Shown: piece after piece, positions 1-19,595 of the stretch
Layout: each line of letters begins with the position of its first letter
Position numbering within the stretch: the first letter of the stretch is position 1
DNA from: an uncultured Acidobacteriota bacterium
GTDB lineage: Bacteria; Acidobacteriota; Thermoanaerobaculia; Multivoradales; JAHEKO01
Length of the DNA: 64,000 nucleotides
Direction: 5' to 3'
Assembly: GCA_963713825.1 (NCBI GenBank)
Contig: CAVQNG010000001.1
Coordinates: 128,001 to 192,000, forward strand
Translations under genes and position numbers: made by a program
Notes under the pieces: model-generated
What the model saw: the letters and a program-made list of their open reading frames with translations, nothing else
Told to the model about the DNA's origin: nothing
The model's database searches: none

Positions 1-109
1 CCTCACCCTTCATGCCGAGTTTCCAGTCTCCAGTCAGAGGTAAAGAGCAGTTGGTGCTACTCTCATTCGCGATGAGTCGTCAGGATTTCGTTGTCGAATA
101 GGGGGCGTC

Positions 110-2239: not shown

Positions 2240-2367
2240 GTCTTCGAACGGCGCCCTACATCGCTTCCAGGCGGTCTCCTCGAGTCGATGTGAGCCCTTG
2301 CTTGATCAGCTTCTCGTCGTCGTGTTCGCTAGTGGGTACCTGGACCTGGGTCCCTCGTGGCACGGCA

Positions 2368-3096
2368 TCAGACCAAGCTCCGGATGACAAGTGCGGCGTA
2401 ACTGTGAGTTCCCTCGATCAGGTGGGCGCTGAACCGCTGCGGTCCGCCATGGTCAGGGGGCGCATCCACGACACGCAGAGTCGGGTCCAACGCGAATTCG
2501 AAGGCGTCGAGGCCATAGGGTAATCCCTCCCCGATGGATTTCAACGCCGCTTCCTTCAGGCTCCAGAATTGGAGGAAGGTCCGCCGGCTCGCCAGGCCGC
2601 CTGGTCCTTCAACGACCTTGGCCTCGGCCACCGAAAAGAACTGCTGAGCGAGCTCTGTAGCCTCCAGGTTTCTCGATCGATCTTCGATGTCGACACCGAC
2701 CCCATGCGTCGACGACCATGCCCCGAGAAGACCGAAGCGGCAAGAGGAAAAACTAAACCAACATCTCGGCAAGTCGGACAGGTGCGGACGGCCGTTTTCT
2801 GTCTCGTCGAAAGCGATCTGCGACAGGGGCTGTGACGATTCGAGCGCACGAGCGCCGCAGAAACGGCGAAACGCCCGGCGTTGTTGGAACCGGGCCTTGT
2901 CACCTTGTGTGACGAAGCGATCGGCCCTGTGCGACTCGGAATCTGACAGGACTGATGCGCAACGCCTCGTTACCTCTGGATCGCGCGACACCGGCGCATA
3001 CAACACGTGAGCGGCGTGACGCGCCGGCGCCGGTGTCAGATCGCGAGAACAAGCGGCGAAATAGTCCTTGATCGGATCGCTACCGTTTCTGGTCAT
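2368..3096 (-). CDS. 4'-phosphopantetheinyl transferase, Sfp type
   Basis: NGRP, GVGVDIE, FFSVAE and FWSLKEAALKSIGEGL motifs; 242 aa; 49 bp downstream of the NRPS on the same strand. Confidence 0.9.
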   Translation of the reverse strand: MTRNGSDPIKDYFAACSRDLTPAPARHAAHVLYAPVSRDPEVTRRCASVLSDSESHRADRFVTQGDKARFQQRRAFRRFCGARALESSQPLSQIAFDETENGRPHLSDLPRCWFSFSSCRFGLLGAWSSTHGVGVDIEDRSRNLEATELAQQFFSVAEAKVVEGPGGLASRRTFLQFWSLKEAALKSIGEGLPYGLDAFEFALDPTLRVVDAPPDHGGPQRFSAHLIEGTHSYAALVIRSLV

Positions 3097-3145
3097 CTGA
3101 ATCGAAGAGCCTTTGGACTGGCTGAGAGACTAGGGGAGGCGAGAG

Positions 3146-6100: not shown

Positions 6101-7399
6101 GTAGAGGCGGCCGAACCGAGGGTGCGTGATGAATTTCTGGGCCGTTTGCTCCGGCAAGTTGCGGTAACCGCGCGCTATGTGCACTCCACCAATGCAGAGC
6201 TCGCCGACTTGCCCGTGGGGCAGTGGGCGGAGCTCGTTGACCTCGAGGATGACGTAGGTGACGTTGGCGAAGGGCGAGCCTATGGTAACGGGCTCTCCCG
6301 CTCGCAAGCTCTGGCGGCTCGTGTCGGTGCTCGCCTCGGTGGGACCGTAGGTGTTGATGATCTGTCGTCTGCCACGCGTCCACGGCTCCACGAGCGCGGT
6401 GGGGAAGGCTTCGCCCGCCGGGACGATATAGCGGCACAGCGGGTACGGCAGATCCAGCTCCGGGTCTGGTGTGAGGGTGGTCAGCAGCACTGGGGGACAA
6501 AACAGCACAGTGACCTCGGCTTCACGGAGGACGGGGATGAGGTCCGGACCGGACCGGAACTGCTCCTTGGTCAGCATGACCACGGCACAACCCGACACCC
6601 AGGCGCTGTACATCTCGGAGATGCTGCCGTCGTAACCCAGCGACGAAGTGAGCGAGGTCGCATCCATTCCAGGAATGAGATCGAAGTAGTCGGCATAGGT
6701 CAGTGCCAGGTTCACATAGCCTGCGTGTGGGCACTCGACGCCCTTGGGCATCCCGGTCGTTCCACTGGTGTAGAAGATCGTTGCCAGGCGCTGGGCGGGG
6801 TCGTCCAACCATGACGGCGGCTTTCTTCGGGGGATCCTTTCGGGCAACGCCAGCAAGTCGAGCGTCGGCAGGTCGCGGAACTTGTCTTGCCCCCGCGTGA
6901 GAATGACCACCGGCTGTGCGTCGTCGAGCATGTGGGCTATCAGGGCTTCCGGCAAGGTGGTGTCGAGGAACATCACCGCACCGCCAGCCTTGAGAATGCC
7001 GAGGTGAGAGGCGACGATTTGCCAGTTGTCCTGCGACATGGCCACGGCCACGACCTGGTCCGGACCTGTAAGGAAGGGAGAAAGGGCCGCCGCGACGCTC
7101 TCAGCTCGGACGTCGAGCTCAGCGAAGGTCAGGGACTCCCCGGTGTGGGGAATCTGCAAAGCCGTGAGATTTGGGAACTTCCTGGCGGAGCGGCTGAAGA
7201 TCTCTGTAAGCCACCGGACGCCTTTCTGATGCGGAACGTTCAGGAGATGTCGGTCGCCAAAGACATCCGTCAAGCTGTATGGGCAAACGTCCGCCCGCCC
7301 GTCCGGCACTATCTCCGCCGCCCAGAGGTATCGCCTCCAGGCCACATACGTTAGTAAAAGGAAGACCAGGAAGACGGCTGTAAAGATAATTGCTGCCAA
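3146..7399 (-). CDS. Pls/PosA-type single-module NRPS-like synthetase (N-terminal TM helix, A, T, then membrane segments alternating with three hexapeptide-like C-terminal domains)
   Basis: A-domain cores YTSGTTGMPKG, NTYGPTE, LYRTGD, GRVDSQLKVRGHRVE, SGKIDR; T-domain GGHS; TM pairs alternating with domains ending WEGAPA / VAGNPP / YEGSPA; TTG start preceded by GAGGA. Confidence 0.88.
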   Translation of the reverse strand: MAAIIFTAVFLVFLLLTYVAWRRYLWAAEIVPDGRADVCPYSLTDVFGDRHLLNVPHQKGVRWLTEIFSRSARKFPNLTALQIPHTGESLTFAELDVRAESVAAALSPFLTGPDQVVAVAMSQDNWQIVASHLGILKAGGAVMFLDTTLPEALIAHMLDDAQPVVILTRGQDKFRDLPTLDLLALPERIPRRKPPSWLDDPAQRLATIFYTSGTTGMPKGVECPHAGYVNLALTYADYFDLIPGMDATSLTSSLGYDGSISEMYSAWVSGCAVVMLTKEQFRSGPDLIPVLREAEVTVLFCPPVLLTTLTPDPELDLPYPLCRYIVPAGEAFPTALVEPWTRGRRQIINTYGPTEASTDTSRQSLRAGEPVTIGSPFANVTYVILEVNELRPLPHGQVGELCIGGVHIARGYRNLPEQTAQKFITHPRFGRLYRTGDKCRIDIRTQQVHFLGRVDSQLKVRGHRVETQAVEDILQTQFGEIEAAVLDYQNEELVAFVSAPSISKADISVVAPAPAEWAARVTATLARQLPEPAVPTRIFLVEQFVMKPVSGKIDRGSLPNLSHLLTNAKPEAEGALDTDSGIAPPPDTDPDLEPGCEEVLTICRAVFETSLEWDDVFADHGGHSIVIARLAQRLQTAGWAVPVRALLSDCDTARKVASRPRQLQEASQTPVAAVKTDRNSTERDEAAARVLSTGYFTTLQVLFLSLLYSPPLIGFLGLIAFSEIGEFFMTAGPWEFIGVGFLMYLIALALPFASLLWVMGIKLFMGGHLYKNKVTPGVYPKWSRMHLRTWCIGRLERSVLFPLRTMFRSAPLMAYVLRRLGTTVGDNLQCAHDVEFNGPLDLLSIGDDVAIQTGAYLHMSRWLGQELHIGPVHLESGCKIGMRAAIANDVTVGRGTWIAPLTPILSDVGAEEMWEGAPARFSGRCTQLQRTAETCEVRHPFWVMETLNILMNVFLDFWLMVVPTAVVSWIAVNFIPVKETEIASKYFKVTPLHEIVWQMGLYAFITTWVAIVLISVLVCLFLRCTPASPGLYSSRGLKGSLLLYRLKKMNQIQRQWTWTITGQYLRALAGMRFPRLGASECDVMFNLVPELASADSQVFWSNGCFTNMLDYGAEHIKLRQLDMPENFFSGNNCVAEYGQFPSNFLLGTSTLGNDIQFRRQMRSRLGEPITVAGNPPVRFASADFEAENRAQKLPSLSLFAARVFLNDVLSIGILRIADILVYVILYTSLLRLGGPLILSAFIALILAEVILIAFCAVIKKVLVGSEWGSAHSTPFWSWRHYTYFFTQDCFFAWCIRPLRILTGTTLSNIVLRWMGCQIGKRTILASPLQAYDWNAVRFGDDCVVNGLLQFHTFENMMLKVKLTEIQDGSTISFGATVMGGAVIEPETTLLPLSMVLKEMHLSTATYEGSPAEPVGED

Positions 7400-7493
7400 G
7401 TGCTGTCCTCACATGGCCGTGAAGCCAAGACCCTTGGTAGCCTGGCTCCAACCGCTGAATCTGCCCCTCGTTGCTTTTGGCGACGGGGTGTGG

Positions 7494-8543
7494 TCAATCA
7501 AAGTACCGCTGGAGCGTTCCGTTGCGACGAATGTCCAAGGTTATGCAATGAAATCCACCACCCAGCATCTTAGAGTGCCGCAACTTCAGGCGGATTACAT
7601 CCAGACCGTGCTTCTCCAAGAGCTTGATCAGAGCTGTCTGGTCTTCATCGACTACGACCAGTTTCGGATTGATGCTCAAGACATTCATGTCGATCCAGTT
7701 GCTACCGATGCTCTTGGCTAGATAGTCGGCATCATATCTATCGGTGTTTTCCATCGGTGGACTGTAGATGACTTCCCATTGTCGAAAGATCTCAGGCAGG
7801 GTCTCGTCGTTGATCCGCCCCGGATTGCAGAGGACCAAGCCAGGGCGCAAAGCTGCAAAGGTCGAGTCGATATGGCTGCCATAATAGACATCTTTGAAGA
7901 AGTGAACCCGAAAAGCATCGCCCAGAATTGTCTGCAGCCATTGCCCACCCAGTTCATTGCCCGTGCCGCTGACCAGATAGAGCAAATCCTGGCCGAGACG
8001 CAGGACGTTCGCTGCATCGAAAGCTGGTTCATCGTTCCGTGGTGTGGGCTTGTTCAGATCCACCTCGAACAGCGAGTCCAACAGCATGGGTTTGGGGGCG
8101 CTGAACCACTTGGCTCCCGACCTTAGATAGTCGACCATCATCGAGCGATAGCTGAACGACTCCAAGGCGCGGCTGCGGATGACATTGGGCGTCTCGATAA
8201 TCTGATCGCCGATGACCAGAATGATGTCGCGGGGACAATAGTTGTAGTACCCCTCGGACTCCCAATGGATGGTGGAAAACTTGGCCTCGTGTGGCCATGT
8301 CTCTGGGCGTCTGACGGTGATGCCCAAACCCTCCAGGACGGCAGCAAAGGTATTCAGATCCTCTTCCGTCTCCTCGATGATCCGCTCTGGGAAAGGGCCC
8401 TGCGGAATCTCTTCCAGTGGACGGCCGGGAAATTCTGCCAGTTGGGTACTTCGGTCTGCTGTAGGAAATCTCGCACGCAGCGGATTGCCGACAATCACTT
8501 CTTCCAGTGGATCCCACTCGTTGCAACTCCAAACGACTGACAT
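7494..8543 (-). CDS. L-arginine-dependent amidinotransferase (StrB1/glycine amidinotransferase family)
   Basis: NEWDPLEEVIVG, YCPRD, FDAANVLR (Asp), HIDST (His), GGGFHCITLD (Cys); ATG at 8543 with AAGGA upstream; recalled StrB1 sequence looks colinear (not computed). Confidence 0.92.
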   Translation of the reverse strand: MSVVWSCNEWDPLEEVIVGNPLRARFPTADRSTQLAEFPGRPLEEIPQGPFPERIIEETEEDLNTFAAVLEGLGITVRRPETWPHEAKFSTIHWESEGYYNYCPRDIILVIGDQIIETPNVIRSRALESFSYRSMMVDYLRSGAKWFSAPKPMLLDSLFEVDLNKPTPRNDEPAFDAANVLRLGQDLLYLVSGTGNELGGQWLQTILGDAFRVHFFKDVYYGSHIDSTFAALRPGLVLCNPGRINDETLPEIFRQWEVIYSPPMENTDRYDADYLAKSIGSNWIDMNVLSINPKLVVVDEDQTALIKLLEKHGLDVIRLKLRHSKMLGGGFHCITLDIRRNGTLQRYFD

Positions 8544-8724
8544 ATGAATCAAATCCTTTTTTGTCCGGGGCTAATGAACGCGGCTCATCCGCCGAGTCCA
8601 CGAAGTGGATCCCCACCTTTGCCCCTGATTCCCTGCAGATCCGAGACGCGCCGACACAGCCAAGGCTCCTTCTTTGCCCCGAAGGACCTTGGCTGGCCGA
8701 ACGGATTACTTTAGCCCTTGCAGC

Positions 8725-9129
8725 CTATTCGACGGGTATTGATTCCCACAATGCGCTGTTTGGACAGACAACAAGCTCTCGATTCTCTTGGTCAATTTTC
8801 GAGGCCGGAGAACCCTCGTAGTTGTCCCAGAACAAACCCCACTCCTCAAAACTAGGCGCTACCACAATAAACAACAGGTCAGTTTCACCCATATTGGTGA
8901 CGGCGACCGGGTGATAGACCCAGGCCTCCAGGTTTTCTCCACCCTTCATTCCCTTTGCAGCCTCGAGCCACTTGGCAGCACCTGCTTCCACCTGCTTCTC
9001 AGTTGCATCATCGTCCAGCTCACAGTGGAAGACCTGCGAGACTCTGACCGCATAGGCCGGAGCGGCTGCAACCATCACCACGGCAAAGAGCATCGCGGAA
9101 ACAAGCATCAATCGAATAGCTTTGTTCAT
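8725..9129 (-). CDS. Secreted hypothetical protein with two Cys (possible disulfide)
   Basis: Clear signal peptide ending AYA; GAGGAG RBS; 134 aa. Confidence 0.7.
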   Translation of the reverse strand: MNKAIRLMLVSAMLFAVVMVAAAPAYAVRVSQVFHCELDDDATEKQVEAGAAKWLEAAKGMKGGENLEAWVYHPVAVTNMGETDLLFIVVAPSFEEWGLFWDNYEGSPASKIDQENRELVVCPNSALWESIPVE

Positions 9130-9266
9130 AACCTAATCTCCTCTCGAGTTAGTGTTTCGAAGCAGTATTCCGCACAGCGAAGGGGCCTGCCCCCGAACAA
9201 TTGTGCAAGGTCAGTCTGAACAATAACACCTGACCTGATCCACTGAAGGACACATCTACTTCCGAC

Positions 9267-9420
9267 TTACTTCTCCAGTTCCATCTCTCCGAGCCGCCAG
9301 GTCTTGTCGTACCAGAGCTCGAGCGGACCATAGAGGCGGAAGATTGTGTTCCAGCCCTTGCCGGGAACCGTCTGAACCCAGTTGTTACCCTGGCCCTCAG
9401 GCGCTTCGGGTTGAATGAAG
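9267..9420 (-). pseudogene. C-terminal fragment of a DUF1254/DUF1214 protein
   Basis: PEAPEG..NWVQTVPGKGWNTIFRLYGPLE.WYDKTWR.GE.E is the typical DUF1214 C-terminus; the rest of the gene is absent. Confidence 0.75.
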
Positions 9421-9469
9421 CCACACTGCGCTGCCGCATGAAGAAGCTCGGAATCCAACGACCCGGACG

Positions 9470-10705
9470 CTAGGTGGAGCTCGCTTCATGCTGACGGCGC
9501 AGAGGCTGGAACTTCAAATAGGTCAGGCTGCGCCACAACCATTCAGCTGGCCCGAACCTGAATCTGCCCAACCACCAGGTGCAGAACATCAGCAGTGTCA
9601 CAAAGAAAAGAACGGCATAGAAGGTGGTGGCGGCCGGCCCCAACAGGAAAAGCTGACCAAAACCCCATCCGTAGAACAGCGTGGTGAACATCACCGTGCT
9701 GAACAGATAAACCGTCAGGGCCATTCTCCCCAGGTTCTCGAAGGGCCGAAGAGCGGTTTGCCAGCCCGGCCTTTGCGCCAGTAAGACGATCCCCGCGCCA
9801 TAACCCAGCGCCAGCGCCGTCGAGCCATAGGCAAAGAGCATGTCGCCAAGAAACCGGACCCCGCTCGATGCCGTGGTCTCGGTAAAGACTGCGTAGCCAA
9901 ATTTCTGGATCAGCCACCACTCAGCGAGTGCGCTGGCTACCCCGATGCCAATACCCCAGCCAAACACTCTGCGGATCAACGGGAGATGGGGCGCGACGTC
10001 GTAGAGAATCCTGGTCCGGCCCACGAACAGGCCAAGCAGGAACATCGAGAAGATTGCAAGACTCGATTCGGGGTCGTGCAGGTTTGACCAGATCCGTGGC
10101 GGAATGGCGAAAGCATTTTCCCGGAAGACATCCATAGGGGAACCCAGGAAAGGATGATCCACCCTCAGTTCGGCCAACGGAAGCGAATCTTCCCACTGGG
10201 CATCCAGGTCATCGCTGCTTTCTGTGTGAACCAGATTACCCACCGGGAAAGCTGCGAGGAGAAGACAGGCCAGAATCAGGAGCGTACGGGGCCGGACATT
10301 GCGGAACGCCACGAGTATCAGCCCCAGCATGGCGTATTCCATCAAGATGTCGCCGTCGAAAAACAGGGCGTGCACCATCCCAAAGACGAACAGGATGGTC
10401 AGTCGTCTGAAGTAGAACCACAAAGACCCGCCCTCGTGTGACATCGCCTTGGCCAACTGCAGTGCGAAGCCCAAACCAAACAACAGGGAGAACAGGCGCC
10501 AGGATTTGGTTTCGAAGAACGCATGCATCCATGTACTGAAGGCGCGATCGAGAGTGCCAGTCCACTCGGGAGCATCAGCCCCGAAGTTGTACATATTGAC
10601 GAGCAACACCCCGAAAAGAGCAAATCCACGGACTGCGTCAACGGAACGGATGCGAGCCCCCGGATCGGTTGGGCCGACTCGTTCTGAACCTGGCATGCGA
10701 GCCAT
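9470..10705 (-). CDS. DUF418/YeiB family membrane protein
   Basis: RIRSVDAVRGFALFGVLLVN, FSLLFG, GDILMEYA, GRMALTVY, FRFGPAEWLWRSLTY. Confidence 0.88.
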   Translation of the reverse strand: MARMPGSERVGPTDPGARIRSVDAVRGFALFGVLLVNMYNFGADAPEWTGTLDRAFSTWMHAFFETKSWRLFSLLFGLGFALQLAKAMSHEGGSLWFYFRRLTILFVFGMVHALFFDGDILMEYAMLGLILVAFRNVRPRTLLILACLLLAAFPVGNLVHTESSDDLDAQWEDSLPLAELRVDHPFLGSPMDVFRENAFAIPPRIWSNLHDPESSLAIFSMFLLGLFVGRTRILYDVAPHLPLIRRVFGWGIGIGVASALAEWWLIQKFGYAVFTETTASSGVRFLGDMLFAYGSTALALGYGAGIVLLAQRPGWQTALRPFENLGRMALTVYLFSTVMFTTLFYGWGFGQLFLLGPAATTFYAVLFFVTLLMFCTWWLGRFRFGPAEWLWRSLTYLKFQPLRRQHEASST

Positions 10706-10789
10706 TCTCTGCTTCTATGACCGGCAGATCAATCCTGGCAGGCGGGAAGACCAACACTCCAGGTGGATCAGTTTTTGAGGCTCGACCAC

Positions 10790-11156
10790 CGGCCGGGTAG
10801 ACCGCGAATTGATCCAGAGCTCTTGAGACTCATCCGTCGGATGGCCACTACAAACCCACTTTGGGGAGCGCCGCGGATCCACGGCGAGTTGCTCAAGCTT
10901 GGGATCGAAGTCTCTGAGCGCACTGTCTCTCGCTGGATGCCGAAGCGACCGAAGCCACCGTCCCAGACCTGGCGAGCCTTTCTGGAGAACCACCTCAAGG
11001 ACTTGGTCTCGATCGATTTCTTCACCGTTGCCTCGGCGACCTTCCAGATCCTCTTCGTCTTCGTCGTCCTCACCCACGACCGGCGGCGCGTGGCAGGCCT
11101 CCAGATCACCGAAGTGCTCATCGCTCCCCGGTCGCCTTGGCAGAATCCGTACGTCG
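10790..11156 (+). mobile_element. Internally deleted, truncated integrase-core (IS481/IS3-like) transposase remnant
   Basis: PGRPRI..LIRRMA..NPLWGAPRIHGELLKLG..VSERTV, QTWRAFL.NH, DFFTV, APRSPWQNPYV; second Asp region and catalytic Glu missing. Confidence 0.85.
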
Positions 11157-11200
11157 CGCGGCGTCAAATGGAAAACCGTACTCCTTGTTATGATGCCGCC

Positions 11201-11857
11201 ATGAAAAAACTCGTCGTGTTAGTAAGTTTGTTCGGAGCCATTAGTCTTCCTCTCGCGGCCCAGGACTCTGAGCCAACCCAGGTTCCTGAACCGACGCAGA
11301 CTCCTGATGTGATCACGGTCCCTGAGCAGACCGATGCTCCAGAACCTGCCCAAGCTCCTGGGCCCTTGAGCCCCCTGGAGAAGGCTCTCATTCAGAGTGC
11401 CTACGATGGGAAACTGGCTGAGGTCCAGGTACTGGTTGCCAAAGGCGCCTCTGTAGATTTAGCCGATAAGAAGAAACGCACGCCGCTTATTCTGGCTGCA
11501 TATAACGGTCACACATCTGTTGTCGAATTTCTCTACGGCAAGGGCGCGGATATCAACGCGAAAGACAGCGGGGGCCAAACCGCGCTGATGCACACGTGCA
11601 AACGTTCCTTTAACGAGACAGCAGCGTTCCTGCTGAAGAACGGCGCGGAGGTAAATGTCCAGAGTAGGAAAAAGGGTGTCACCGCCTTGATGATCACGGC
11701 GGTGGCGGGCAATGTGGAATTGGTGCGCATGCTGCTTGATCGCGGGGCGGATGCAAATCTCACTGATGTCTTTGGTAACACTGCCAAGATTCTGGCCGAG
11801 AAAAAGGGGAATTCGGCCGTGGTTGATTTGCTGTCTGAGCCGCCAGCAAGTGGTTGA
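11201..11857 (+). CDS. Secreted ankyrin-repeat protein with Pro/Glu/Thr-rich linker
   Basis: MKKLVVLV..LAA signal peptide; EPTQVPEPTQTP linker; about 4-5 ankyrin repeats (TPLILAA.NGH, TALM..A..GNVELVRMLLDRGAD). Confidence 0.9.
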   Translation: MKKLVVLVSLFGAISLPLAAQDSEPTQVPEPTQTPDVITVPEQTDAPEPAQAPGPLSPLEKALIQSAYDGKLAEVQVLVAKGASVDLADKKKRTPLILAAYNGHTSVVEFLYGKGADINAKDSGGQTALMHTCKRSFNETAAFLLKNGAEVNVQSRKKGVTALMITAVAGNVELVRMLLDRGADANLTDVFGNTAKILAEKKGNSAVVDLLSEPPASG

Positions 11858-12058
11858 CCGGGCGCTGGAGAACGTCACGCCCGCGGACGTCTACTACGGT
11901 CGCCACCGAACAGTGCTCCCCGAGAGGGCCAGGATCAAGCGGCTGACAACGCAGCGCAGAAAGAGTGAGTACGGGGCTGCGAAATCAGCCTAGCTCCGAA
12001 CCATGAACCGTCTCTTGGAAATCGACTCCGACTGTCCGAAATATTCGGACGACGTGCA
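11858..12058 (+). mobile_element. 3' remnant and right end of a second IS3/IS481-like element
   Basis: ALENVTPADVYYGR..L.ERARIKRLT..RR transposase C-terminus (stop at 11993), then a terminal-repeat-like tgtccgaaatattcggacgacgtgca ending in CA. Confidence 0.7.
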
Positions 12059-12068
12059 CACTTCGGGG

Positions 12069-12097
12069 TTGGTTTCACATAGCCATCCTTCTATAAA
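12069..12097 (+). promoter_or_regulatory. Candidate sigma70-type promoter for the 708-aa secreted protein
   Basis: TTGGTT-N17-TATAAA in an AT-rich intergenic region. Confidence 0.4.
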
Positions 12098-12327
12098 TGT
12101 GTACTTCTCTCAGCACTGTCGATACGATTGCCGTATCGGTAGTGCCTAGAAGATCGTTGACCGTCGGGATTCATGCCTAAGGCTTGTACCACCGACGAAA
12201 AGTAGCGAGTACTTTCTTGGTTTTAAGAGGATCTATAGACGCAAAGAGATACTTCCTCTCTTCAAGGAATCGAATGAAGGTTTCGTTAAACCCCTCAACT
12301 CAAATTGCGAGGTAACAACCATGTGCG

Positions 12328-14454
12328 ATGACCGTGCGAAACGATGCGTGCTGGCAGTCCCTCCTCTGGAAAATTTCGGGTGCCTTGTTGATCACGCTGC
12401 TTTGCAGCCCCGTCTATGCTCAGCCGGCGAATGACGACTGTGAGAGTGCCGCCGTCCTGCCAGGCTCAGCTCCATTCCCCCCCTATACAGTCCGTGTTGA
12501 CGCTACCAATGCCACACTCGACCCCGCCGATCCCCTGCTCAGCTGCAACGCCGGCGGGGATGATGACGGCAACCAAACCGTTTGGTATGTCTACACACCA
12601 GATGCCAGCGGATGGGTCGACTTCAATACCTTTGGCAGCACGACAGCTGGGGGCGGTGAACTGGACACTGCGCACGGCGCATTTGCCGGAACCTGCGATG
12701 CCCTAACTCAAGTCGCCTGCGTAGACCAGGGTCTCAATGACAGCCTGGATGTCGAAGTGGAAGCAGGGACCACCTACTACATCAAGGTTGGTCAATTTGC
12801 TGGTGGCAACGATGCCGGAACTGTCGTGATGAATGTTGAAGAGGGTGTCCCGCCGATTGAGCCGGCTAGACTGGTTATCGAATCCTCGAACAATGGCACC
12901 TCCGCCCCGGTGAGAGATATTGTTGGTGGGTCTGCACCTATTTCAATTTCCGCGGCTCAAGCGGAGAACATGATCGAAAAACTTGTCGAGATTCCGAATT
13001 ACGTGCTTGCTGACGGCGAGTCTTCGAAACCCGATGCGGGACCTGTCGGGTCACAGGTCGCAGGCAATGGTGAAGTCAGATGGAACGGTCCGGCAGATCT
13101 TCTGCAAGTTTTCGAAGGCGGAGAAAACGATGACAACGCCTTTACCTTTGGTTTTCTCATAGCTCCGCCCGACACGGTAGGCGACGTCGGTAGAGACCAT
13201 TACGTACAGATGTACAATCTGCTGACGGAGATCTTCGACAAGGAGGGCAATAGCGTTCTCGGACCGTTTCCGACCTCCACCTTCTTTACCGGAATGTCTG
13301 GAAATTGCGCAATCAGTGACGATGGAGACCCGATCGTCCTCTATGACGAGGAAACGGACCGTTGGCTGGTGTCACAGTTCCTGGCTTCCTTCCAGGATGG
13401 CCTCTGCATAGCCATTTCGACCAGCGGCGACCCGACCGGCAGTTACAACCAGTATGAGTTTGACTTCACCGGTATCGGGTTTCCCGATTATCCGAAGTTT
13501 GGCTTCGCAACCGGTGCCATCAACGTGATGGTCAACCTGTTCTCCCCCTTCCAGGGCTCTGCGCTGGGCGCGATCGACAAGTCCGAGATGTTGGCTGGAG
13601 AACCGGCAACGATGGTGCTCTTCACCGGAGGCGAAGACGCTAATTATGCATTTGGCTGGGTTCCTGGTGACAACGATGGTCCGGTTTTCGACAACACGCT
13701 GCCGACTTTCTTCACCACTCTCGGAGGTTCCGGCGATACCATCTTCGTCGCGGAAATTACGCCTGACTGGGCCACTCCGGAGAATACTGGGCTCGGCTTT
13801 GACTTTATCCCGGTTACGCCATGGGACAGCACGCTCTGTGGTGCTTCGCGCGGTGCTTGTATTGATCAGCCGGGTTCGGGTACGGAGAACATTCCCTTCC
13901 TGGAAGGTATTACCGACCGCCTGATGCACCGCGGGCAGACCCGTGATTTCGGTAGGCGCAAGAAAGCCATCCTCAGCCATACGGTGGATGTGGACGGCAC
14001 GGGCAAAGCGGGTGTGCGCTGGTATGAGCTCTGGAACCACAAGGACCGAGGCTGGACGCTGAAGAAGGAAAACACCTTCTCACCCGACGGTGACCACCGC
14101 TGGATGGGTAGTATTGCGATGACCGCCTCTGGTAGTACTTGCCTGGGATATAGCATCTCAAGTCAAACTACCTACCCGAGTATTGGCATTACCGGCCGCA
14201 AAGGCACGTCGAACCACATGAATATTTTTGAATTGGTGGCTTTCGATGGCAACGTTGCTGGGAACGTGCAGCGGTCAACGGCGAGATGGGGTGATTACAG
14301 CGCCATGTCCATCGACCCGGTAGACGACAGCTGCTGGTACACCCAGGAACATGCCAAGCCAGGTTCCTTTATTGACGAGATATTCGGCTGGGGTACCCAG
14401 GTGATGCAATTCTCAGTCAGCGGTCGCGGTCGCGGTCAAGGACGCGGACGATGA
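12328..14454 (+). CDS. Large secreted protein: N-terminal PANDDC (PPC-like) module and an uncharacterised C-terminal domain, probably a beta-propeller
   Basis: Signal peptide ending VYA; PANDDC..VWYVYT..GTTYYIKVG; PPDT.GDVG..HYVQ, GDPIVLYD..DRW, FPDYPK, RWMGSIAM, RWGDYSAMSIDP. Confidence 0.75.
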   Translation: MTVRNDACWQSLLWKISGALLITLLCSPVYAQPANDDCESAAVLPGSAPFPPYTVRVDATNATLDPADPLLSCNAGGDDDGNQTVWYVYTPDASGWVDFNTFGSTTAGGGELDTAHGAFAGTCDALTQVACVDQGLNDSLDVEVEAGTTYYIKVGQFAGGNDAGTVVMNVEEGVPPIEPARLVIESSNNGTSAPVRDIVGGSAPISISAAQAENMIEKLVEIPNYVLADGESSKPDAGPVGSQVAGNGEVRWNGPADLLQVFEGGENDDNAFTFGFLIAPPDTVGDVGRDHYVQMYNLLTEIFDKEGNSVLGPFPTSTFFTGMSGNCAISDDGDPIVLYDEETDRWLVSQFLASFQDGLCIAISTSGDPTGSYNQYEFDFTGIGFPDYPKFGFATGAINVMVNLFSPFQGSALGAIDKSEMLAGEPATMVLFTGGEDANYAFGWVPGDNDGPVFDNTLPTFFTTLGGSGDTIFVAEITPDWATPENTGLGFDFIPVTPWDSTLCGASRGACIDQPGSGTENIPFLEGITDRLMHRGQTRDFGRRKKAILSHTVDVDGTGKAGVRWYELWNHKDRGWTLKKENTFSPDGDHRWMGSIAMTASGSTCLGYSISSQTTYPSIGITGRKGTSNHMNIFELVAFDGNVAGNVQRSTARWGDYSAMSIDPVDDSCWYTQEHAKPGSFIDEIFGWGTQVMQFSVSGRGRGQGRGR

Positions 14455-14524
14455 CTAGCGGGACTGTGCCGTGGGTTGCAAGGCCTGAACAGGTCTAGCC
14501 CCATGGGGCAAGAGAAGTACAATG

Positions 14525-14554
14525 GGAGGGTCTCGTTGAGGCCCTCCTTTTTTT
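14525..14554 (+). terminator. Rho-independent terminator
   Basis: GGAGGGTCTC-gtt-GAGGCCCTCC stem followed by T7. Confidence 0.85.
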
Positions 14555-14569
14555 GAGACGAGGTAAGCA

Positions 14570-14995
14570 GTGCATGGTTCAAGGCGGGCCCGTCTGCGTC
14601 AATGCTGTAAGGACTGCAACCCCATTCCGTTCCTGTTGGCGGCGATCTGCCTGGTGGGTTGTCTGCACACCGAGATGCCAGTGAATCCCCCTGATACCGG
14701 TATCAGAGGGACTGTGCTTTGGGGCCCGGTCGAGCCCGGACCGTCCAGGCTTGGACAAAGCGACGAAGCGCCGCTTCGAGCTACCTTTCTGGTACAGAGT
14801 GCCGGCCGCGAGGTGGCGCGATTCAAGTCCGACGCCAAGGGTAGCTTCGAGGTCTTGCTGCCTGCAGGCGACTACGTGATCGTCCCGGACCAATCAACGC
14901 CCATGCCCGCCCCACAGAACCAGAAGAAGTCAGTAACCGTGCCGGCGGACGGCTTTGCCGTCGTCACGCTCAGGTTCGACACCGGCATGAGGTGA
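14570..14995 (+). CDS. Putative lipoprotein with a carboxypeptidase-regulatory-like beta-sandwich domain
   Basis: Lipobox-like LVGC after a hydrophobic stretch; TGIRGTV..GP, SDAKGSFEVLLPAGDYVI, C-terminal FDTGMR. Confidence 0.65.
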   Translation: MHGSRRARLRQCCKDCNPIPFLLAAICLVGCLHTEMPVNPPDTGIRGTVLWGPVEPGPSRLGQSDEAPLRATFLVQSAGREVARFKSDAKGSFEVLLPAGDYVIVPDQSTPMPAPQNQKKSVTVPADGFAVVTLRFDTGMR

Positions 14996-15060
14996 TTGAG
15001 GCATCCCCCGACAGCTGGACCGGGTATCTGCGAGAATTCTCATAATCCGTAAGGAGGCAG

Positions 15061-15088
15061 AGAATGAGGGGCAGCTCACCCCTTTTCT
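15061..15088 (+). terminator. Possible terminator hairpin between convergent genes
   Basis: AGGGG-cagctca-CCCCT followed by TTTCT. Confidence 0.3.
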
Positions 15089-15149
15089 GATCCACCCGAT
15101 GTGCGAGTTTCGGGGGATGCCTCATGTCTGGTCCCATCGACTGCGGACT

Positions 15150-16214
15150 CTATGGTACGAACGACACAGCCGTCGGTGGATACCAGATTCGGCGCTCACG
15201 CTTACGCTGTTCATCGATTGCAGCGACCGAAGTGGAATAGGCTGTGCCCGAGACAAGCTCGGGCAGCCGAGCCTGCGTCCCGTCGATCATCGGGCTCTTC
15301 CAAGCTGCACCGTCTCGAAGTCTGTTGAGAGTGACCTCGTACATGATCTGCACCGACGAGAGACTGCGCGACGGTTGCCACGTCAAGACGTATCTACCGC
15401 GGTCGATCTGCCGAATCTCCAAGCCGGTCGGGCGCGACGGCGGAAACCACTCGGGCTCGCCCAGATAGTACGAGTAGCGACTCTCCGAGCCCCACGTATC
15501 TTCGGCGTCAACGAAAGGCACTGCGAACTGGCCCTTGACGAGGACGTGCGCAGCGTTCGTCAGATACTCCCTTGGAAAGATCCAACCGCCTGGCAAGCAG
15601 TCGGGATACTGCGGGTTTTGCCGCAGCCAGTCGAGGGTTGGTAACGCCCCGTCCGGCGTGCGCAGAATGACGCCACCCTTGAAGTAGTTGGCGTCGGCGA
15701 CTCGCCAAGTGCCGTCGAGCGACACCTCCGTTACGACGTGAACCGATGGACTGTAGGCCGATGGCAAGAAGGTGATTCTGGCATCCCATCCCGCGGCAAG
15801 ACAGAGCTGCCGGACGATCTCAGCTGTATGCCAGCAGCGTGCGTCATGCAGCTCCAGCAACTCGTGCGCTGCCGTGACAATGGTCTGCTGATCGGTTTCG
15901 AAAGGGCACTCCAGGGGATTGTGCCACGTGGCATCTTGCACGAACCGAACGATCGCTTCCAGCATTGCCTGCTTGCTGGAGCGCGTCTGCAACACGTTCG
16001 ACAGCACCTCGCGTAGGTACTCCCTCTTGGAAGTGCCCTCGAGACGGGCACGCACGAATTCAAGCTTCGTCTGGTTGTATCCGTTTGTCTCAGCCGTGAC
16101 CTGAGTAGCCGGCAGAATGAACCACGGTATCCCGTCTCTGACCCAGTCGCGCTTGAACCGCCACCCGAACTCGTACCCGCATTGTCCAGCGCTATCACTT
16201 GGCACTGTGCGCAC
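15150..16214 (-). CDS. Transglutaminase-like (Cys-His-Asp) protein with a C-terminal fibronectin type III domain
   Basis: DARCWHTA (Cys), LCLAAGWDAR, HVVTEVSLDGTWRVAD (His, Asp); PPSRPTGL..LTW..YEV..LVSGTAYSTSVAA FN3 signature; no signal peptide. Confidence 0.75.
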   Translation of the reverse strand: MRTVPSDSAGQCGYEFGWRFKRDWVRDGIPWFILPATQVTAETNGYNQTKLEFVRARLEGTSKREYLREVLSNVLQTRSSKQAMLEAIVRFVQDATWHNPLECPFETDQQTIVTAAHELLELHDARCWHTAEIVRQLCLAAGWDARITFLPSAYSPSVHVVTEVSLDGTWRVADANYFKGGVILRTPDGALPTLDWLRQNPQYPDCLPGGWIFPREYLTNAAHVLVKGQFAVPFVDAEDTWGSESRYSYYLGEPEWFPPSRPTGLEIRQIDRGRYVLTWQPSRSLSSVQIMYEVTLNRLRDGAAWKSPMIDGTQARLPELVSGTAYSTSVAAIDEQRKRERRIWYPPTAVSFVP

Positions 16215-16247
16215 CCTCGAAAGCCAACCGCTCTCGGAGCCGATCTT

Positions 16248-16451
16248 CTAGTCGGCCTTCGCTTTCCCTTCCCCCTGCCCCATGCTGCCCCCCTTCATTT
16301 TCTCCAACTCACCGCGAATCACCGTGATCGCCTGCCTCATCAGCTCGCTGTCATTCGACTGGCCGCTCGCGTTGAGATACTCCGCAAACTCCGACAGATC
16401 AGCGACTGTGCTCTCCATCAGTTCCACTTTCTTTGGATTGAATCCACCCAT
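16248..16451 (-). CDS. 67-aa small protein; candidate RiPP precursor with double-glycine motif
   Basis: Strong AAAGGAG RBS 5 nt before ATG; starts 15 nt after the radical SAM stop codon; ELEKMKGG followed by SMGQGEGKAKAD. Confidence 0.65.
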   Translation of the reverse strand: MGGFNPKKVELMESTVADLSEFAEYLNASGQSNDSELMRQAITVIRGELEKMKGGSMGQGEGKAKAD

Positions 16452-16466
16452 GGCAACTCCTTTCCG

Positions 16467-18053
16467 TTAAGTGATGTTCTCCGCATACCGATAGCTCGGC
16501 ACGAGGTTCCTGATCTCGTTCATGTCCTCCTCGGCGATCGGATTCACTAACTGCTCGAAGCCCATGTTGACGCCCGGTGAGAGCCGGCTGATCGCTTCGT
16601 CCACGCTTGGAAGCTCCGATGCGCTCTTCACGAGGTCGGTCAGCTCCGTGAAGACTTCAAGTGCATATTGGAACATCTTTTGTCTTCGCGCCCTTCTGAA
16701 GGGCGCCGGAAGACTGCCCGCGCCCCACTTGAAGCCGCGAGTCCAATCCGACACAACTCCCATCCATCTCTCCATGAGACCGCTGGACACGGCATGGAGC
16801 CACGCGATCTTCGGATCCGCAAACTCGTAGTCGGGATTGAGGTAGTCGCCCTTGAGCTGTCCCTGAGCTTCAAGTTCTTCGTAGATCGGGGTCCCGGTAT
16901 AGACCGAGAGGCGACTCAGCAACTCGAAGATGAGATAGGACGCGTGGCGCTTGAGGAACGCGATGTTGGCCTCGATATCCTCCAGTGTGGTTTCGGGATC
17001 GAACATGATGAACCCAGCGTTGATCTCGATCCCATGCCGATGAAGCACCTGGATAGCACGTTCGTTGATCTCTGGTGTGGCGCCTTTTTGGAACCGGCGA
17101 AGAACAGCAGCAGAGGCGGACTCGATTCCTATAAGGGCGCTCTTGAGGCCCACCTCACGCAACTGATGGATGACCTCATCATTCACCTGTGCTGCAGTAA
17201 GCAAAGCAATGAGAGTCAGGTCCTGTAGGCCGCTGCCTTTAATCGCGGCGCAGAGTTGACGAATGCGTTCCGATCCCTCCTGTCCAACTGGAATAAAGCT
17301 GTCATCGGCGAAATCGAACCCATCGCATCCTTCTCGTTGGTGGAGCTCGACCATTTCAGCGACGATGTTGTCGGCGCTTCTGGCTCTCCACCCGCAACCA
17401 TAGAACGCTTGGACGCTGCAAAACGAGCAGCGATACTGGCACCCGCGACTGGAGACCATGGTGGCATAGCGAATGCCGCCATACTCCGGGGGCATGAACT
17501 GCCGCTTGGGAAAGGGTAGGGTATCCAGGTCCTGGATGAGATCGGCGCGAGGCCCGACCACGACCTCATCTTGGTGCCGGTACGTGACACCGTGCAGGCC
17601 CGCGAGCTCTTTGCCGCCGAGGACTCGAGTGGCCAGATCATGGAGGGGCTCCTCTCCTTCGCCCCGGGCGACGGAGTCGAAGCAGTCGAAATCTCGCAGC
17701 AACTTGTCGTGAGCGACGGTTGGGAAGTGGCCACCGATACAGATGTGCGTCGATGGGCTGTCGCGCCTGATGGCTCGGGCAACTTCCACGACCTCTGGAA
17801 AGCCGAGTTGGGAGGTGGCGCTGATCCCGACGAGCCGATAGGCGCTTTCTGACACTCGGCGAGCGACGTCGGCCGTCGTCGACTCTGTGCCGAGTACCAT
17901 GTCACTGACGTCGGCGCGGATGCCTCGTGATTCCAAATAGGAAGACAGGTAACCGATACCGAGATGATCGTAAGTCTTGTCCTCGGCGCGAACACCATCG
18001 AATGGCCTTACGAGCAAGACGGCCTGTCCATTGCCAGCCTGGTCGATTGGCAC
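16467..18053 (-). CDS. Cobalamin-dependent (class B) radical SAM enzyme, probable methyltransferase
   Basis: HLGIGYLSSYL, VGISA, IGGHFPT, GEGE (B12-binding domain); SRGCQYRCSFC CxxxCxxC; DDSF, IGIES, GFIMFDP; GTG start at 18053 after GGAGG preferred to the TTG at 18125. Confidence 0.92.
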   Translation of the reverse strand: MPIDQAGNGQAVLLVRPFDGVRAEDKTYDHLGIGYLSSYLESRGIRADVSDMVLGTESTTADVARRVSESAYRLVGISATSQLGFPEVVEVARAIRRDSPSTHICIGGHFPTVAHDKLLRDFDCFDSVARGEGEEPLHDLATRVLGGKELAGLHGVTYRHQDEVVVGPRADLIQDLDTLPFPKRQFMPPEYGGIRYATMVSSRGCQYRCSFCSVQAFYGCGWRARSADNIVAEMVELHQREGCDGFDFADDSFIPVGQEGSERIRQLCAAIKGSGLQDLTLIALLTAAQVNDEVIHQLREVGLKSALIGIESASAAVLRRFQKGATPEINERAIQVLHRHGIEINAGFIMFDPETTLEDIEANIAFLKRHASYLIFELLSRLSVYTGTPIYEELEAQGQLKGDYLNPDYEFADPKIAWLHAVSSGLMERWMGVVSDWTRGFKWGAGSLPAPFRRARRQKMFQYALEVFTELTDLVKSASELPSVDEAISRLSPGVNMGFEQLVNPIAEEDMNEIRNLVPSYRYAENIT

Positions 18054-18095
18054 CGATCCTCCAGGGGTCCTCCGCTGTGACTGCACTGTGGCTCG

Positions 18096-18125
18096 ATTCT
18101 TTAGGAGACATGGCGTCCACGTCAA
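18096..18125 (-). promoter_or_regulatory. Candidate promoter of the radical SAM operon
   Basis: TTGACG-N18-AAGAAT on the minus strand. Confidence 0.35.
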
Positions 18126-18161
18126 GCCCGTCGAGTCGGGCCCTACTCAACTAGGAGAAAG

Positions 18162-18232
18162 TGGCGGAGGGGAAGGGATTCGACCACGGAGGGCTAATGT
18201 GCGTGAACGGTCGCCGGTTTTCAAGACCGGTG
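18162..18232 (-). pseudogene. Decayed 3' portion of tRNA-Ser(TGA); att-site-like remnant
   Basis: Minus strand CACCGGTC-TTGAAA-ACCGG anticodon arm, long variable region, damaged T-loop (GGTCGAATCC), 3' CCCCTCCGCCA; no acceptor 5' strand or D-arm. Confidence 0.8.
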
Positions 18233-18446
18233 TCTGGCTTGGGTCGACCTTTAGTGGAACTGCAGCAATTCTGACCACAGCCCTATCGTGGTCCACTCAG
18301 GGATCACCTGCACCGGTCCAACGTCCTGGCTTGGAAGAGGATGAACTCTGAGTCCGGTGGGGGAGAGAGTCGTCCCTAAAGTCTCTCGGACTACGACAGA
18401 CCACGCTCCAGAGTGTTTGCTCTATGTTTTCTCGGGCCGTTTTGGA

Positions 18447-18467
18447 ACTTAAAGTAATACTTTAAGT
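18447..18467. repeat. Perfect AT-rich inverted repeat next to the tRNA-Thr 3' end
   Basis: ACTTAAAGTA-A-TACTTTAAGT. Confidence 0.8.
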
Positions 18468-18503
18468 GTGGCCTTTAAACTCTTTGTTCCCAGAGGGATA
18501 AAG

Positions 18504-18579
18504 TGGAGCCGACGAGCGGACTCGAACCGCTGACCTGCTCATTACGAGTGAGCTGCTCTACCAGCTGAGCTACGTCGGC
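18504..18579 (-). tRNA. tRNA-Thr(CGT)
   Basis: GCCGACGTAGCTCAGCTGGTAGAGCAGCTCACTCGTAATGAGCAGGTCAGCGGTTCGAGTCCGCTCGTCGGCTCCA; 76 nt cloverleaf with encoded CCA. Confidence 0.97.
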
Positions 18580-18719
18580 TCTGGGTGGGCTTCGATCCAG
18601 CCCGGAGGCACAAGATACTAGGCGATTCGACGGCGCGGAGCAAGATCCGTGTCTGACACTTTCGCTGGTTCGCGTCAGGCGCGGCTGGACCTCGTTCCGG
18701 TATGCTCTGGGACCACGGT

Positions 18720-19595
18720 ATGAGCCAGGACCCCGCCATTACCAAGCGTGACCAGTCTGTGCGCAAGACTCTGGTCTGGGTCCTCGTCCTGAATCTGGTC
18801 GTCGCCACGGCGAAGCTGGCTGTCGGCTGGCTCAGCTCCAGCATCAGCATGGTGGCGGACGGCTTTCATTCCCTGACGGACAGTGCCTCCAACATCGTCG
18901 GACTGATCGGCATATCACTGGCTGGCAGACCCCCAGATGAAGATCATCCCTACGGGCATCGGAAGTTCGAAACCCTGGCGGCCCTGATGATTGGAGCCCT
19001 CCTCGCGTTGACGGCATGGGAGGTGCTCAAGAGCTGTCTGGAACGATTACGAGAGGGCGGAACGCCTGAAGCGACGCCGCTGACGTTCTGGGTCATGGGC
19101 ACGACCCTCCTGATCAATCTCGGTGTATCCACTTGGGAGCGGCGTGAAGGGGCCCGATTGAAGAGCGACCTGCTCAAGGCAGATGCTGCCCACACGCAAA
19201 GCGACGTCTACGCCTCGCTGGCGGTGATTGCGAGCCTGATCGCCGCCCGGATGGGCTTCCCTCAACTGGATCTAGTAGCGGCAGTCGTCATCACACTGGT
19301 GATTGCGCGAGCCGCCTTCCAGATTCTGAAGGAGAACGGCATGCTGTTGGCTGACACGGCCATGCTCCCAGCCGAAGAGGTGGCGTCGGTGGCGACTGAG
19401 GTGCCAGGTGTGCGTTCTGTCCACAAGATTCGCACCAGGGCGACGTCACGGGGAGGGAATGCGGATTTACACGTCCAGGTCGACGGTGGTCTGCCGCTCG
19501 AAGAGGCACACCGAATCGGTCACGCTGTCGCGGACAGACTCAAGGAGACGCTTCATTTCGAAGACGTACTCGTTCACGTCGAGCCCCCCGACTAG
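18720..19595 (+). CDS. Cation diffusion facilitator family transporter (FieF-like)
   Basis: ADGFHSLTD, HPYGHRKFE, ADAAHTQSD, HKIRTR, EEAHRIG, VHVEP. Confidence 0.92.
   Translation: MSQDPAITKRDQSVRKTLVWVLVLNLVVATAKLAVGWLSSSISMVADGFHSLTDSASNIVGLIGISLAGRPPDEDHPYGHRKFETLAALMIGALLALTAWEVLKSCLERLREGGTPEATPLTFWVMGTTLLINLGVSTWERREGARLKSDLLKADAAHTQSDVYASLAVIASLIAARMGFPQLDLVAAVVITLVIARAAFQILKENGMLLADTAMLPAEEVASVATEVPGVRSVHKIRTRATSRGGNADLHVQVDGGLPLEEAHRIGHAVADRLKETLHFEDVLVHVEPPD

Follow-up and report, generated by a model that had tools for sequence, protein, structure and literature searches.

Genetic linkage of class B radical SAM and transglutaminase-fold enzymes to a small protein: an undescribed three-gene cassette in an acidobacterial genome

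The stretch of DNA analyzed here, referred to as the window, comprises 64,000 nucleotides (nt) from an uncultured Acidobacteriota bacterium (GenBank assembly GCA_963713825.1, contig CAVQNG010000001.1, positions 128,001 to 192,000). At positions 15150..18125 it carries three open reading frames (ORFs), all on the minus strand and in the same orientation, which encode a class B radical S-adenosylmethionine (SAM) enzyme, a small protein, and an enzyme combining a transglutaminase fold with an FN3 domain. This cassette is undescribed: class B radical SAM and transglutaminase-fold enzymes are genetically tied to a small protein, the sole conserved sequence motif of which, across a family of 16 members, is an N-terminal hexapeptide. 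The cassette consists of the following features, with protein lengths given in amino acids (aa).

16467..18053, minus strand: class B radical SAM enzyme, 528 aa from the GTG codon at 18053, with the reading frame open back to a TTG codon at 18125
16457..16463, minus strand: ribosome-binding site AAAGGAG of the small gene, 5 nt before its ATG
16248..16451, minus strand: 67-aa small protein that matches no known family, as called from the ORF
16434..16451, minus strand: codons of the N-terminal hexapeptide M-G-G-F-N-P, the proposed modification site
16251..16292, minus strand: codons of G54-G55 and the 12-residue tail SMGQGEGKAKAD, not conserved
15150..16214, minus strand: enzyme of 354 aa, or 351 aa from the GTG codon at 16205, with a transglutaminase fold and, at its C-terminus, an FN3 domain

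An earlier note on this DNA, made by a model from the letters alone, had described a tight three-gene operon, and both the shared orientation and the gap lengths of 15 and 33 nt are borne out. The ribosome-binding site that it had called very strong is present at 16463..16457, both enzyme domain assignments hold when the Pfam library is applied, and the small ORF stands as a gene on the strength of 16 distinct full-length sequences and a strong ribosome-binding site at all five loci compared. Regarding the start codons, the GTG at 18053, which lies behind a GGAGGA sequence, is likelier for the radical SAM gene than the TTG at 18125. For the third gene, the GTG at 16205, located 8 nt behind GAGGG, appears more likely from the sequence, and a 99% identical relative (P0005) starts there; use of this codon would widen the second gap to 42 nt. 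The earlier note had also seen no transporter, C39 peptidase, or obvious RiPP recognition element (RRE), where RiPP denotes a peptide that is ribosomally synthesized and then modified post-translationally, and Pfam and NCBIfam scans of the cassette and the neighboring ORFs agree in finding no C39 peptidase, ATP-binding cassette (ABC) transporter, or RRE family. Rfam detected no riboswitch in window positions 14400..18700, where a tRNA is the sole match, and PADLOC reported no defence family of note in the cassette. Contigs from RNA libraries cover 208 nt (run X20, 16867..17074) and 261 nt (run X19, a library that is probably DNA), with the rest of the cassette uncovered in both, from which neither expression nor silence follows.

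The cassette recurs elsewhere. A collection of 5.8 billion proteins contains 10 relatives of the transglutaminase-like/FN3 protein, and the loci retrieved comprise one from a genome (L001, a Desulfobacca metagenome-assembled genome, MAG) and 17 from metagenomes. L001 and the metagenome loci L003-L006 form a close clade, defined by an identity of at least 50%, and the other 13 loci form a distant clade at 28–32% identity. Five lineages can be counted in the close clade, namely the window together with L003, and L001, L004, L005, and L006. They lie far from the window's own genome, since the Desulfobacca MAG is among them and one transglutaminase-like relative bears the source label Dongiaceae. 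In L003, which is 99% identical to the window, and in L001, the radical SAM, small, and transglutaminase-like genes follow one another in the order seen in the window. On the short contigs of L004 and L006 the small gene lies 6–9 nt ahead of the transglutaminase-like gene. The L005 locus has its radical SAM and transglutaminase-like genes directly next to each other, with the small gene 2.3 kb away on the opposite strand, where it keeps its own AAGGAGAGG ribosome-binding site. Overall, the small gene accompanies the transglutaminase-like gene in all five lineages, directly upstream in four, and the radical SAM gene is adjacent in each of the three lineages with enough upstream DNA, its orthologues being 50% and 43% identical to that of the window. 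The three genes are found in one another's company in lineages that are not related.

Relatives of the small protein were collected with two kinds of query. A single-protein query in a word-indexed search of the 5.8 billion proteins returned four relatives at 81–99% identity, and an alignment query of the same collection returned 16, including a gene call that is truncated. The resulting set holds 16 distinct full-length sequences, including that of the window, and all of them start with MGG[F/Y]NP, with F in eight and Y in eight. Position 7 is K, R, G, or Q, and the invariant columns of alignment A6, which contains 15 sequences, are M1, G2, G3, N5, P6, and L49. The remaining body of 45–65 residues is poorly conserved and ranges in net charge from acidic to very basic, the extremes of composition being four K+R with 11 D+E and 19 K+R with seven D+E. 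A strong ribosome-binding site precedes the ATG-GGN-GG start by 5–8 nt in 5 of 5 loci, taking the forms GAAAGGAG, AAAGGAGG, AAGGAGAGG, and GAGAGGAG in L001, L004, L005, and L006, and in the window, L001, and L004 no other possible start lies between an in-frame stop codon and the ATG of the hexapeptide. Together, these two observations place the motif at the extreme N-terminus of the protein.

The small gene is present in one copy in its own genome, and the window's protein matches no Pfam or NCBIfam family. The same libraries applied to 15 members of the family returned scattered coiled-coil noise, with any one family shared by at most four of the 15, and the best ESM Atlas score (0.77) was not meaningful. 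A PADLOC match of the small protein to PycC (E 8e-4 over 40 residues) was likewise taken as coiled-coil noise. No account of the MGGFNP/MGGYNP motif or of the gene trio was found in the literature searched, in which most subscription journals are not covered.

The radical SAM enzyme contains a B12-binding domain (PF02310, E 5.3e-16, residues 54–164 of the 552-aa reading) and a Radical_SAM domain (PF04055, E 5.2e-18). Its cluster motif is C205-x3-C209-x2-C212, and the three cysteines are invariant in 65 of 65 aligned relatives. The best NCBIfam scores span 128 to 95 bits and belong to HpnJ (128 bits, cut-off 578), BchE (126), ApyD (119, cut-off 750), PhpK (106), and HpnR, all far under family cut-offs of 450–750 bits or more. 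The nearest solved structure by sequence is OxsB (5ul2, E 2e-16). A PADLOC match to PDC-M51A (E 2e-8) was set aside as generic for radical SAM proteins. Scanned exhaustively, 1.84 billion representatives yielded 42,796 class B relatives, among which the match extends through about residue 500 only in four sequences (P0027-P0030) and one fragment (P0031), at 40–48% identity. Subsequent matches fall to about 270 bits and mostly end near residue 420. Because most other relatives stop there, the last approximately 100 residues mark a small subfamily. By analogy with related enzymes, methyl transfer to a peptide is a candidate activity that this enzyme may possess.

In the third protein, Pfam recognizes an fn3 domain (E 3e-6, residues 260–336) and, just below threshold, Transglut_core (E 1e-4, residues 74–175, 22.8 bits against a cut-off of 23). 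In the ESM Atlas, PF01841 clusters account for 28 of 30 feature matches, with a score of 0.94. Fold searches with a full-length model, as well as a PDB profile search, were dominated by FN3, and the N-terminal part was modeled alone. The model of residues 12–255 has a predicted local distance difference test (pLDDT) value of 76 and a predicted template modeling (pTM) score of 0.80. With this model, Foldseek returned 3isr (E 1e-4), followed by 3kd4, 4xz7, 9crn, PNGase 2f4m, and LapG. The top ranks of VIA were filled by transglutaminase-superfamily entries: 3isr with Z 9.6 (root-mean-square deviation, rmsd, 3.1; 123 aligned), 9crn with 9.3, 4xz7 with 8.5, and factor XIII with 8.0. On the basis of the model, the third protein has a transglutaminase/papain-like fold. 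The enzyme is probably cytoplasmic, since its N-terminus contains no hydrophobic stretch.

Cys, His, and Asp, in that order, are expected of a transglutaminase-fold triad. In the model, Cys127 opens a helix (127–140), His159 lies in a strand (159–166), and Asp174 follows a strand (169–173), so that Cys127/His159/Asp174 can be proposed as the predicted triad, assigned from the sequence pattern and the secondary structure of the model. Residues H123, D124, R126, C127, H129, T162, E163, and D174 are invariant in the clade linked to the radical SAM gene, and H123, D124, R126, and C127, which form the ELLELHDxRC motif, are invariant in both clades. In the radical-SAM-linked clade, 5 of 12 members have Gln in place of the canonical His159, and all rows of the distant clade have His; as a consequence, classical Cys-His-Asp hydrolysis is doubtful for half of the family. 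His129, invariant in the radical-SAM-linked clade only and Gln in the distant clade, might substitute for His159 as the catalytic His, as far as conservation can indicate. A link between the residue at position 159 (His/Gln) and that at position 4 of the small protein (Phe/Tyr) was considered and dropped, as the Gln rows are unresolved in the tree, corresponding to one or two changes; the link is also weakened by the presence of Phe4 in the basic small proteins resembling that of L004. A complex prediction with both enzymes and the small protein gave interaction prediction scores from aligned errors (ipSAE) of 0.31, 0.01, and 0.02 against a mark of 0.32, with an uncertain partner fold and without controls, and counts neither for nor against an association.

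The surroundings of the cassette are delimited by a tRNA gene and two repeats, as listed below.

18504..18579, minus strand: intact tRNA-Thr(CGT), called by ARAGORN and scoring 71 bits with Rfam
18146..18266, no strand assigned: short repeat present in many copies, located in the interval from the radical SAM gene to tRNA-Thr
14997..15124, no strand assigned: hairpin-forming repeat just downstream of the cassette, with 15-nt perfect inverted arms at 14997–15011 and 15110–15124

The tRNA is not the attachment-site remnant that had been read here at first sight: it is an intact gene located 378 nt upstream, and no direct repeat of its 3′ end was found in window positions 1..19000. To the left of the cassette, six ORFs with lengths of at least 200 aa were scanned, and none matched an integrase family. 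The tRNA marks a break in synteny, because two genomes of the same genus (G004 and G003) align with the window from 24500 and 22026 to 18504 and 18503, respectively, which is the 3′ end of tRNA-Thr, and no further; beyond the tRNA, G004 carries a different gene. Both repeats recur in the genus. Window positions of approximately 18144..18240 give many short matches on several contigs of same-genus genomes, and approximately 15065..15124 recurs at 92–100% identity on many same-genus contigs. In a sediment metagenome (run X8), the depth is 234.8 over 18146..18266 and 55.7 over 14997..15124, compared with about 7 inside the cassette. The hairpin element at 14997..15124 looks like a repeat of the repetitive extragenic palindromic (REP) or miniature inverted-repeat transposable element (MITE) type. 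Metagenome contigs break at both flanking repeats.

The distribution of the cassette is sparse and scattered. None of 40 relatives drawn from the genus, family, and order of the window's genome yielded the transglutaminase-like gene. When 401 genomes were sampled across the phylum, the sole full-length match was in the genome of the window itself, and 28 further matches were weak FN3 or generic domain hits with E values of 1e-7 or worse. In the class of the Desulfobacca MAG, 1 of 83 genomes carries the gene. Near-identical copies of the cassette occur on contigs of 18 sequencing runs from 11 studies, covering marine, estuarine, salt-marsh, and freshwater sediments. Rarity, patchiness, the synteny break, and the repeats fit a horizontal spread of a small unit in which no mobility gene was seen.

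Several other genes of the window were recorded. A minus-strand gene at 2368..7399 encodes a 1417-aa single-module protein resembling a nonribosomal peptide synthetase (AMP-binding and PP-binding domains, hexapeptide transferase repeats), and it is followed on the same strand by a 4′-phosphopantetheinyl transferase gene. On the plus strand, 10763..11857 combines transposase-type helix-turn-helix domains (HTH_32, HTH_21) with ankyrin repeats, 12328..14454 encodes 708 aa with a hydrophobic, signal-like N-terminus, and 14570..14995 encodes 141 aa; neither of the last two has a Pfam, NCBIfam, or PADLOC family. The gene at 12328..14454 is not part of the cassette, because DNA 69–77% identical to it is found on other contigs of same-genus genomes.

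The neighbors of the cassette differ among lineages. In L001 a gene of glycosyltransferase family 2 (GT2) lies 66 nt before the radical SAM gene, and in L005 GT2, methyltransferase, and family 1 glycosyltransferase (GT1) genes surround the cassette. The window's cassette contains no GT2, methyltransferase, GT1, or Asp/Asn beta-hydroxylase gene. GT2 is not established as a conserved fourth gene, given that the L001 and L005 proteins are only 23% identical over 104 residues (E 0.011) and are not orthologues. The small gene of L005 is divergent from a gene for an Asp/Asn beta-hydroxylase (PF05118, E 1e-39), a hint at Asn5. The detached small gene of this locus has Dongiaceae-like surroundings, with genes at 9669..10928 (plus strand) and 7106..9305 (minus strand) and FlhA next door; in the minus-strand segment the small gene is followed by an ORF without a family (8337..9305) and then, at 7106..8323, by a gene for a GT1_4 glycosyltransferase.

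The distant clade of the transglutaminase/FN3 family presents a different context. None of its 13 loci contains a relative of the radical SAM gene (phmmer, E < 1) or an ORF starting with MGG[F/Y]NP, and 8 of the 10 loci scanned adjoin Amidohydro_2, MFS_2 sugar transporter, GH43/GH38, or DUF2961 genes. Because the clade sits in sugar-utilization contexts, the ancestral substrate of the family may have been a glycan or glycopeptide. The members of the distant clade (L007-L019) carry ELLELHDxRC and an intact Cys-His-Asp pattern. Taken with the neighboring genes, these features suggest an intracellular enzyme, as yet unannotated and possibly PNGase-like, that takes part in using glycans or glycopeptides.

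The explanation tentatively favored for the cassette, to be regarded as possible rather than probable, is a follower-type (leaderless) modification system acting on the invariant N-terminal hexapeptide of the small protein. The cassette would be mobile and self-contained and modify its own small protein, which would be built from an N-terminal core and a C-terminal follower. Removal of Met1 would expose G-G-[F/Y]-N-P as the substrate, and the variable, putatively helical body would serve as the handle gripped by the enzymes, with two candidates for docking modules, the FN3 domain and the C-terminal extension of the radical SAM protein. The first step would be C-methylation or another radical reaction, carried out by the radical SAM enzyme on an invariant residue (Phe/Tyr4, Asn5, or Pro6, at C-beta). 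In the second step, the transglutaminase-fold enzyme would use Cys127 to cleave the modified N-terminal piece off the body or, alternatively, to attack the carboxamide of Asn5 in a deamidation or transamidation. Since the core is invariant, a single conserved product would be predicted, as opposed to a variable family of antibiotics, and since neither a transporter nor an immunity gene is present, an intracellular role is suggested.

Several points weigh against this explanation. HpnJ and BchE, the top-scoring named families for the radical SAM enzyme, act on non-peptide substrates, although all such matches are far below cut-off. His159 has been replaced by Gln in part of the close clade, the distant clade dispenses with both the radical SAM gene and the MGG ORF in its carbohydrate contexts, and glycosyltransferase genes flank the cassette in L001 and L005. 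In addition, the body of the small protein offers little conserved surface for a recognition handle, and the modification, cleavage, and binding of the small protein are all inferred from sequence.

The earlier note had proposed a different architecture, in which residues 1–55 form a double-glycine leader and the tail is a core that would be C-methylated, with release or Gln-Lys cross-linking through the transglutaminase-like enzyme to follow. In the window, the protein indeed reads ...RGELEKMKGG SMGQGEGKAKAD, as quoted there, with one Gln and two Lys in the tail. Within the close clade the tail is also the most variable part, as RiPP cores often are: 9 of 14 positions vary in GG and the tail, compared with 10 of 53 in residues 1–53. 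A disordered, unconstrained tail would, however, vary fast too, and the pattern fits either possibility as far as the sequences go. Across the family, GG occurs at residues 54–55 in only 3 of the 16 members; close variants have GD (P0001) or EG (P0004) at these residues, and the tail Gln is lost in P0003. Eleven members have neither GG nor tail and end at or a few residues past the last Leu-rich, predicted helical stretch, the L001 protein terminating in ...LAELQ. Moreover, neither a C39 peptidase nor a peptidase-containing ABC transporter (PCAT) was found in the cassette and neighbors scanned, nor in the ORFs scanned in L001 and L005. Homologous loci thus do carry the small ORF that had been expected there, but not the conserved GG and tail, and the pattern that the note itself had named as speaking against its proposal, conservation confined to the helical part with the site and tail excluded, is the one encountered as regards GG and tail. 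Because only the N-terminal hexapeptide is invariant, the double-glycine leader with a C-terminal core is rejected as very improbable. What stands of the proposed new system is the genetic tie between the two enzymes and the small protein; the assignment of leader and core falls. A lone GG in one sequence is poor ground for a double-glycine call without comparative data.

A more serious competitor, although an unlikely one, holds that the small protein is not a substrate but an obligate helical partner, such as a chaperone, adaptor, or regulator, and that the enzymes act elsewhere, possibly on a lipid, a glycan, or a glycopeptide. Vasohibin has such a small helical partner in SVBP, and vasohibin-SVBP complexes are among the fold matches of the third protein (6j4s, Z 5.5, rmsd 3.8, 139 aligned; 6wsl, Z 5.2), but Z values of about 5 are in the range of common arrangements. 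The carbohydrate-utilization contexts of the distant clade, the glycosyltransferases beside the cassette in L001 and L005, the loss of the canonical His159 in 5 of 12 members, and the non-peptide substrates of HpnJ and BchE would also agree with such a partner. Nevertheless, a partner should keep its helical surface, yet only six N-terminal residues are kept and the charge of the body swings widely; furthermore, the distant clade functions without such a small gene in all 13 loci. It could also be argued that the three genes are neighbors without a shared function, brought together as an accident of a variable region, or that the small ORF acts as a leader or has a regulatory role in the translation of the downstream gene. 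The tRNA-side region is indeed variable among same-genus genomes and flanked by multi-copy repeats, and the L005 small gene is detached from the two enzyme genes. This explanation is nonetheless scarcely credible in view of the recurrence of the same trio in lineages that share nothing else around it, the conservation of the N-terminus at the protein level in 16 of 16 members, and the retention of a strong ribosome-binding site of its own even when the small gene is detached.

A more far-reaching version of the hexapeptide-modification reading combines several claims: a new leaderless pathway, cutting or cyclization based on Asn5, one conserved product, and a tiny mobile unit. The product would be cofactor- or signal-like, as pyrroloquinoline quinone (PQQ) or mycofactocin, the transglutaminase-fold enzyme would have partly given up the canonical His, and the unit would hop between sediment bacteria of different phyla. 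It is rather unlikely that all of these claims hold jointly.

If the hexapeptide is the substrate, the cassette would be among very few follower-type (leaderless) ribosomal peptide systems, and it would represent the first pairing of a B12 radical SAM enzyme with a transglutaminase-fold/FN3 enzyme. It would also provide a function for an unannotated transglutaminase/FN3 family, recognizable by ELLELHDxRC, the other branch of which resides in sugar-utilization loci. The conserved N-terminus yields a sharper and directly testable hypothesis than the double-glycine reading, and three genes with an invariant six-residue target are small enough for direct reconstitution.

Comparison with known systems reveals partial likenesses to several of them. 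The vasohibin-SVBP pair resembles the cassette in combining a transglutaminase/papain-like Cys enzyme with a small protein of 50–70 residues, and the fold match is weak; the pair is, however, eukaryotic and lacks a radical SAM enzyme, and SVBP acts as a partner instead of a substrate. The RiPP class B enzymes PoyC, TsrM, CysS, TokK, and ApyD have the same N-terminal B12-binding domain and CxxxCxxC radical SAM core, and the radical SAM enzyme is similar in sequence to ApyD (119 bits), TokK, CysS, and TsrM. In contrast to these enzymes, it misses the family cut-offs, HpnJ and BchE score as well or better, and its C-terminal extension of about 100 aa is found in only about five representative clusters.

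The nearest protease-type precedent is provided by the lasso B proteins (MEROPS C96), in which a transglutaminase-like Cys enzyme is likewise found next to a small gene; in a published review, lasso peptides are described as having a transglutaminase-like cysteine protease encoded beside a small precursor gene (PMC10885120). Unlike the lasso systems, the cassette contains neither an Asn-synthetase-like lasso cyclase nor an RRE/B1 partner according to Pfam and NCBIfam. Its enzyme also differs from lasso B proteins in the Gln at position 159 in 5 of 12 members, the C-terminal FN3 domain, and the ELLELHDxRC motif, which is common to the clade in carbohydrate loci. For the topology of the small protein, the nearest precedent is bottromycin (BotA/BtmD), with no leader, a target right after Met1, and a longer C-terminal follower. 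According to two published accounts, bottromycin is made from a precursor without a leader but with a follower peptide, Met1 is removed, radical SAM methyltransferases carry out beta-methylation of residues, and the follower is taken off by a hydrolase (PMC10885120, PMC5103208). Unlike the bottromycin pathway, the cassette contains no YcaO, P450, M17 aminopeptidase, amidohydrolase, or transporter; its candidate hydrolase has a transglutaminase fold with FN3, and GG[F/Y]NP is unrelated to the bottromycin core. Because YcaO, the lasso cyclase, and the RRE are absent, the cassette is a member of neither the bottromycin nor the lasso family. Its conservation pattern nevertheless fits a layout in which the core directly follows Met1, and by this analogy with bottromycin the N-terminus would be the modified part.

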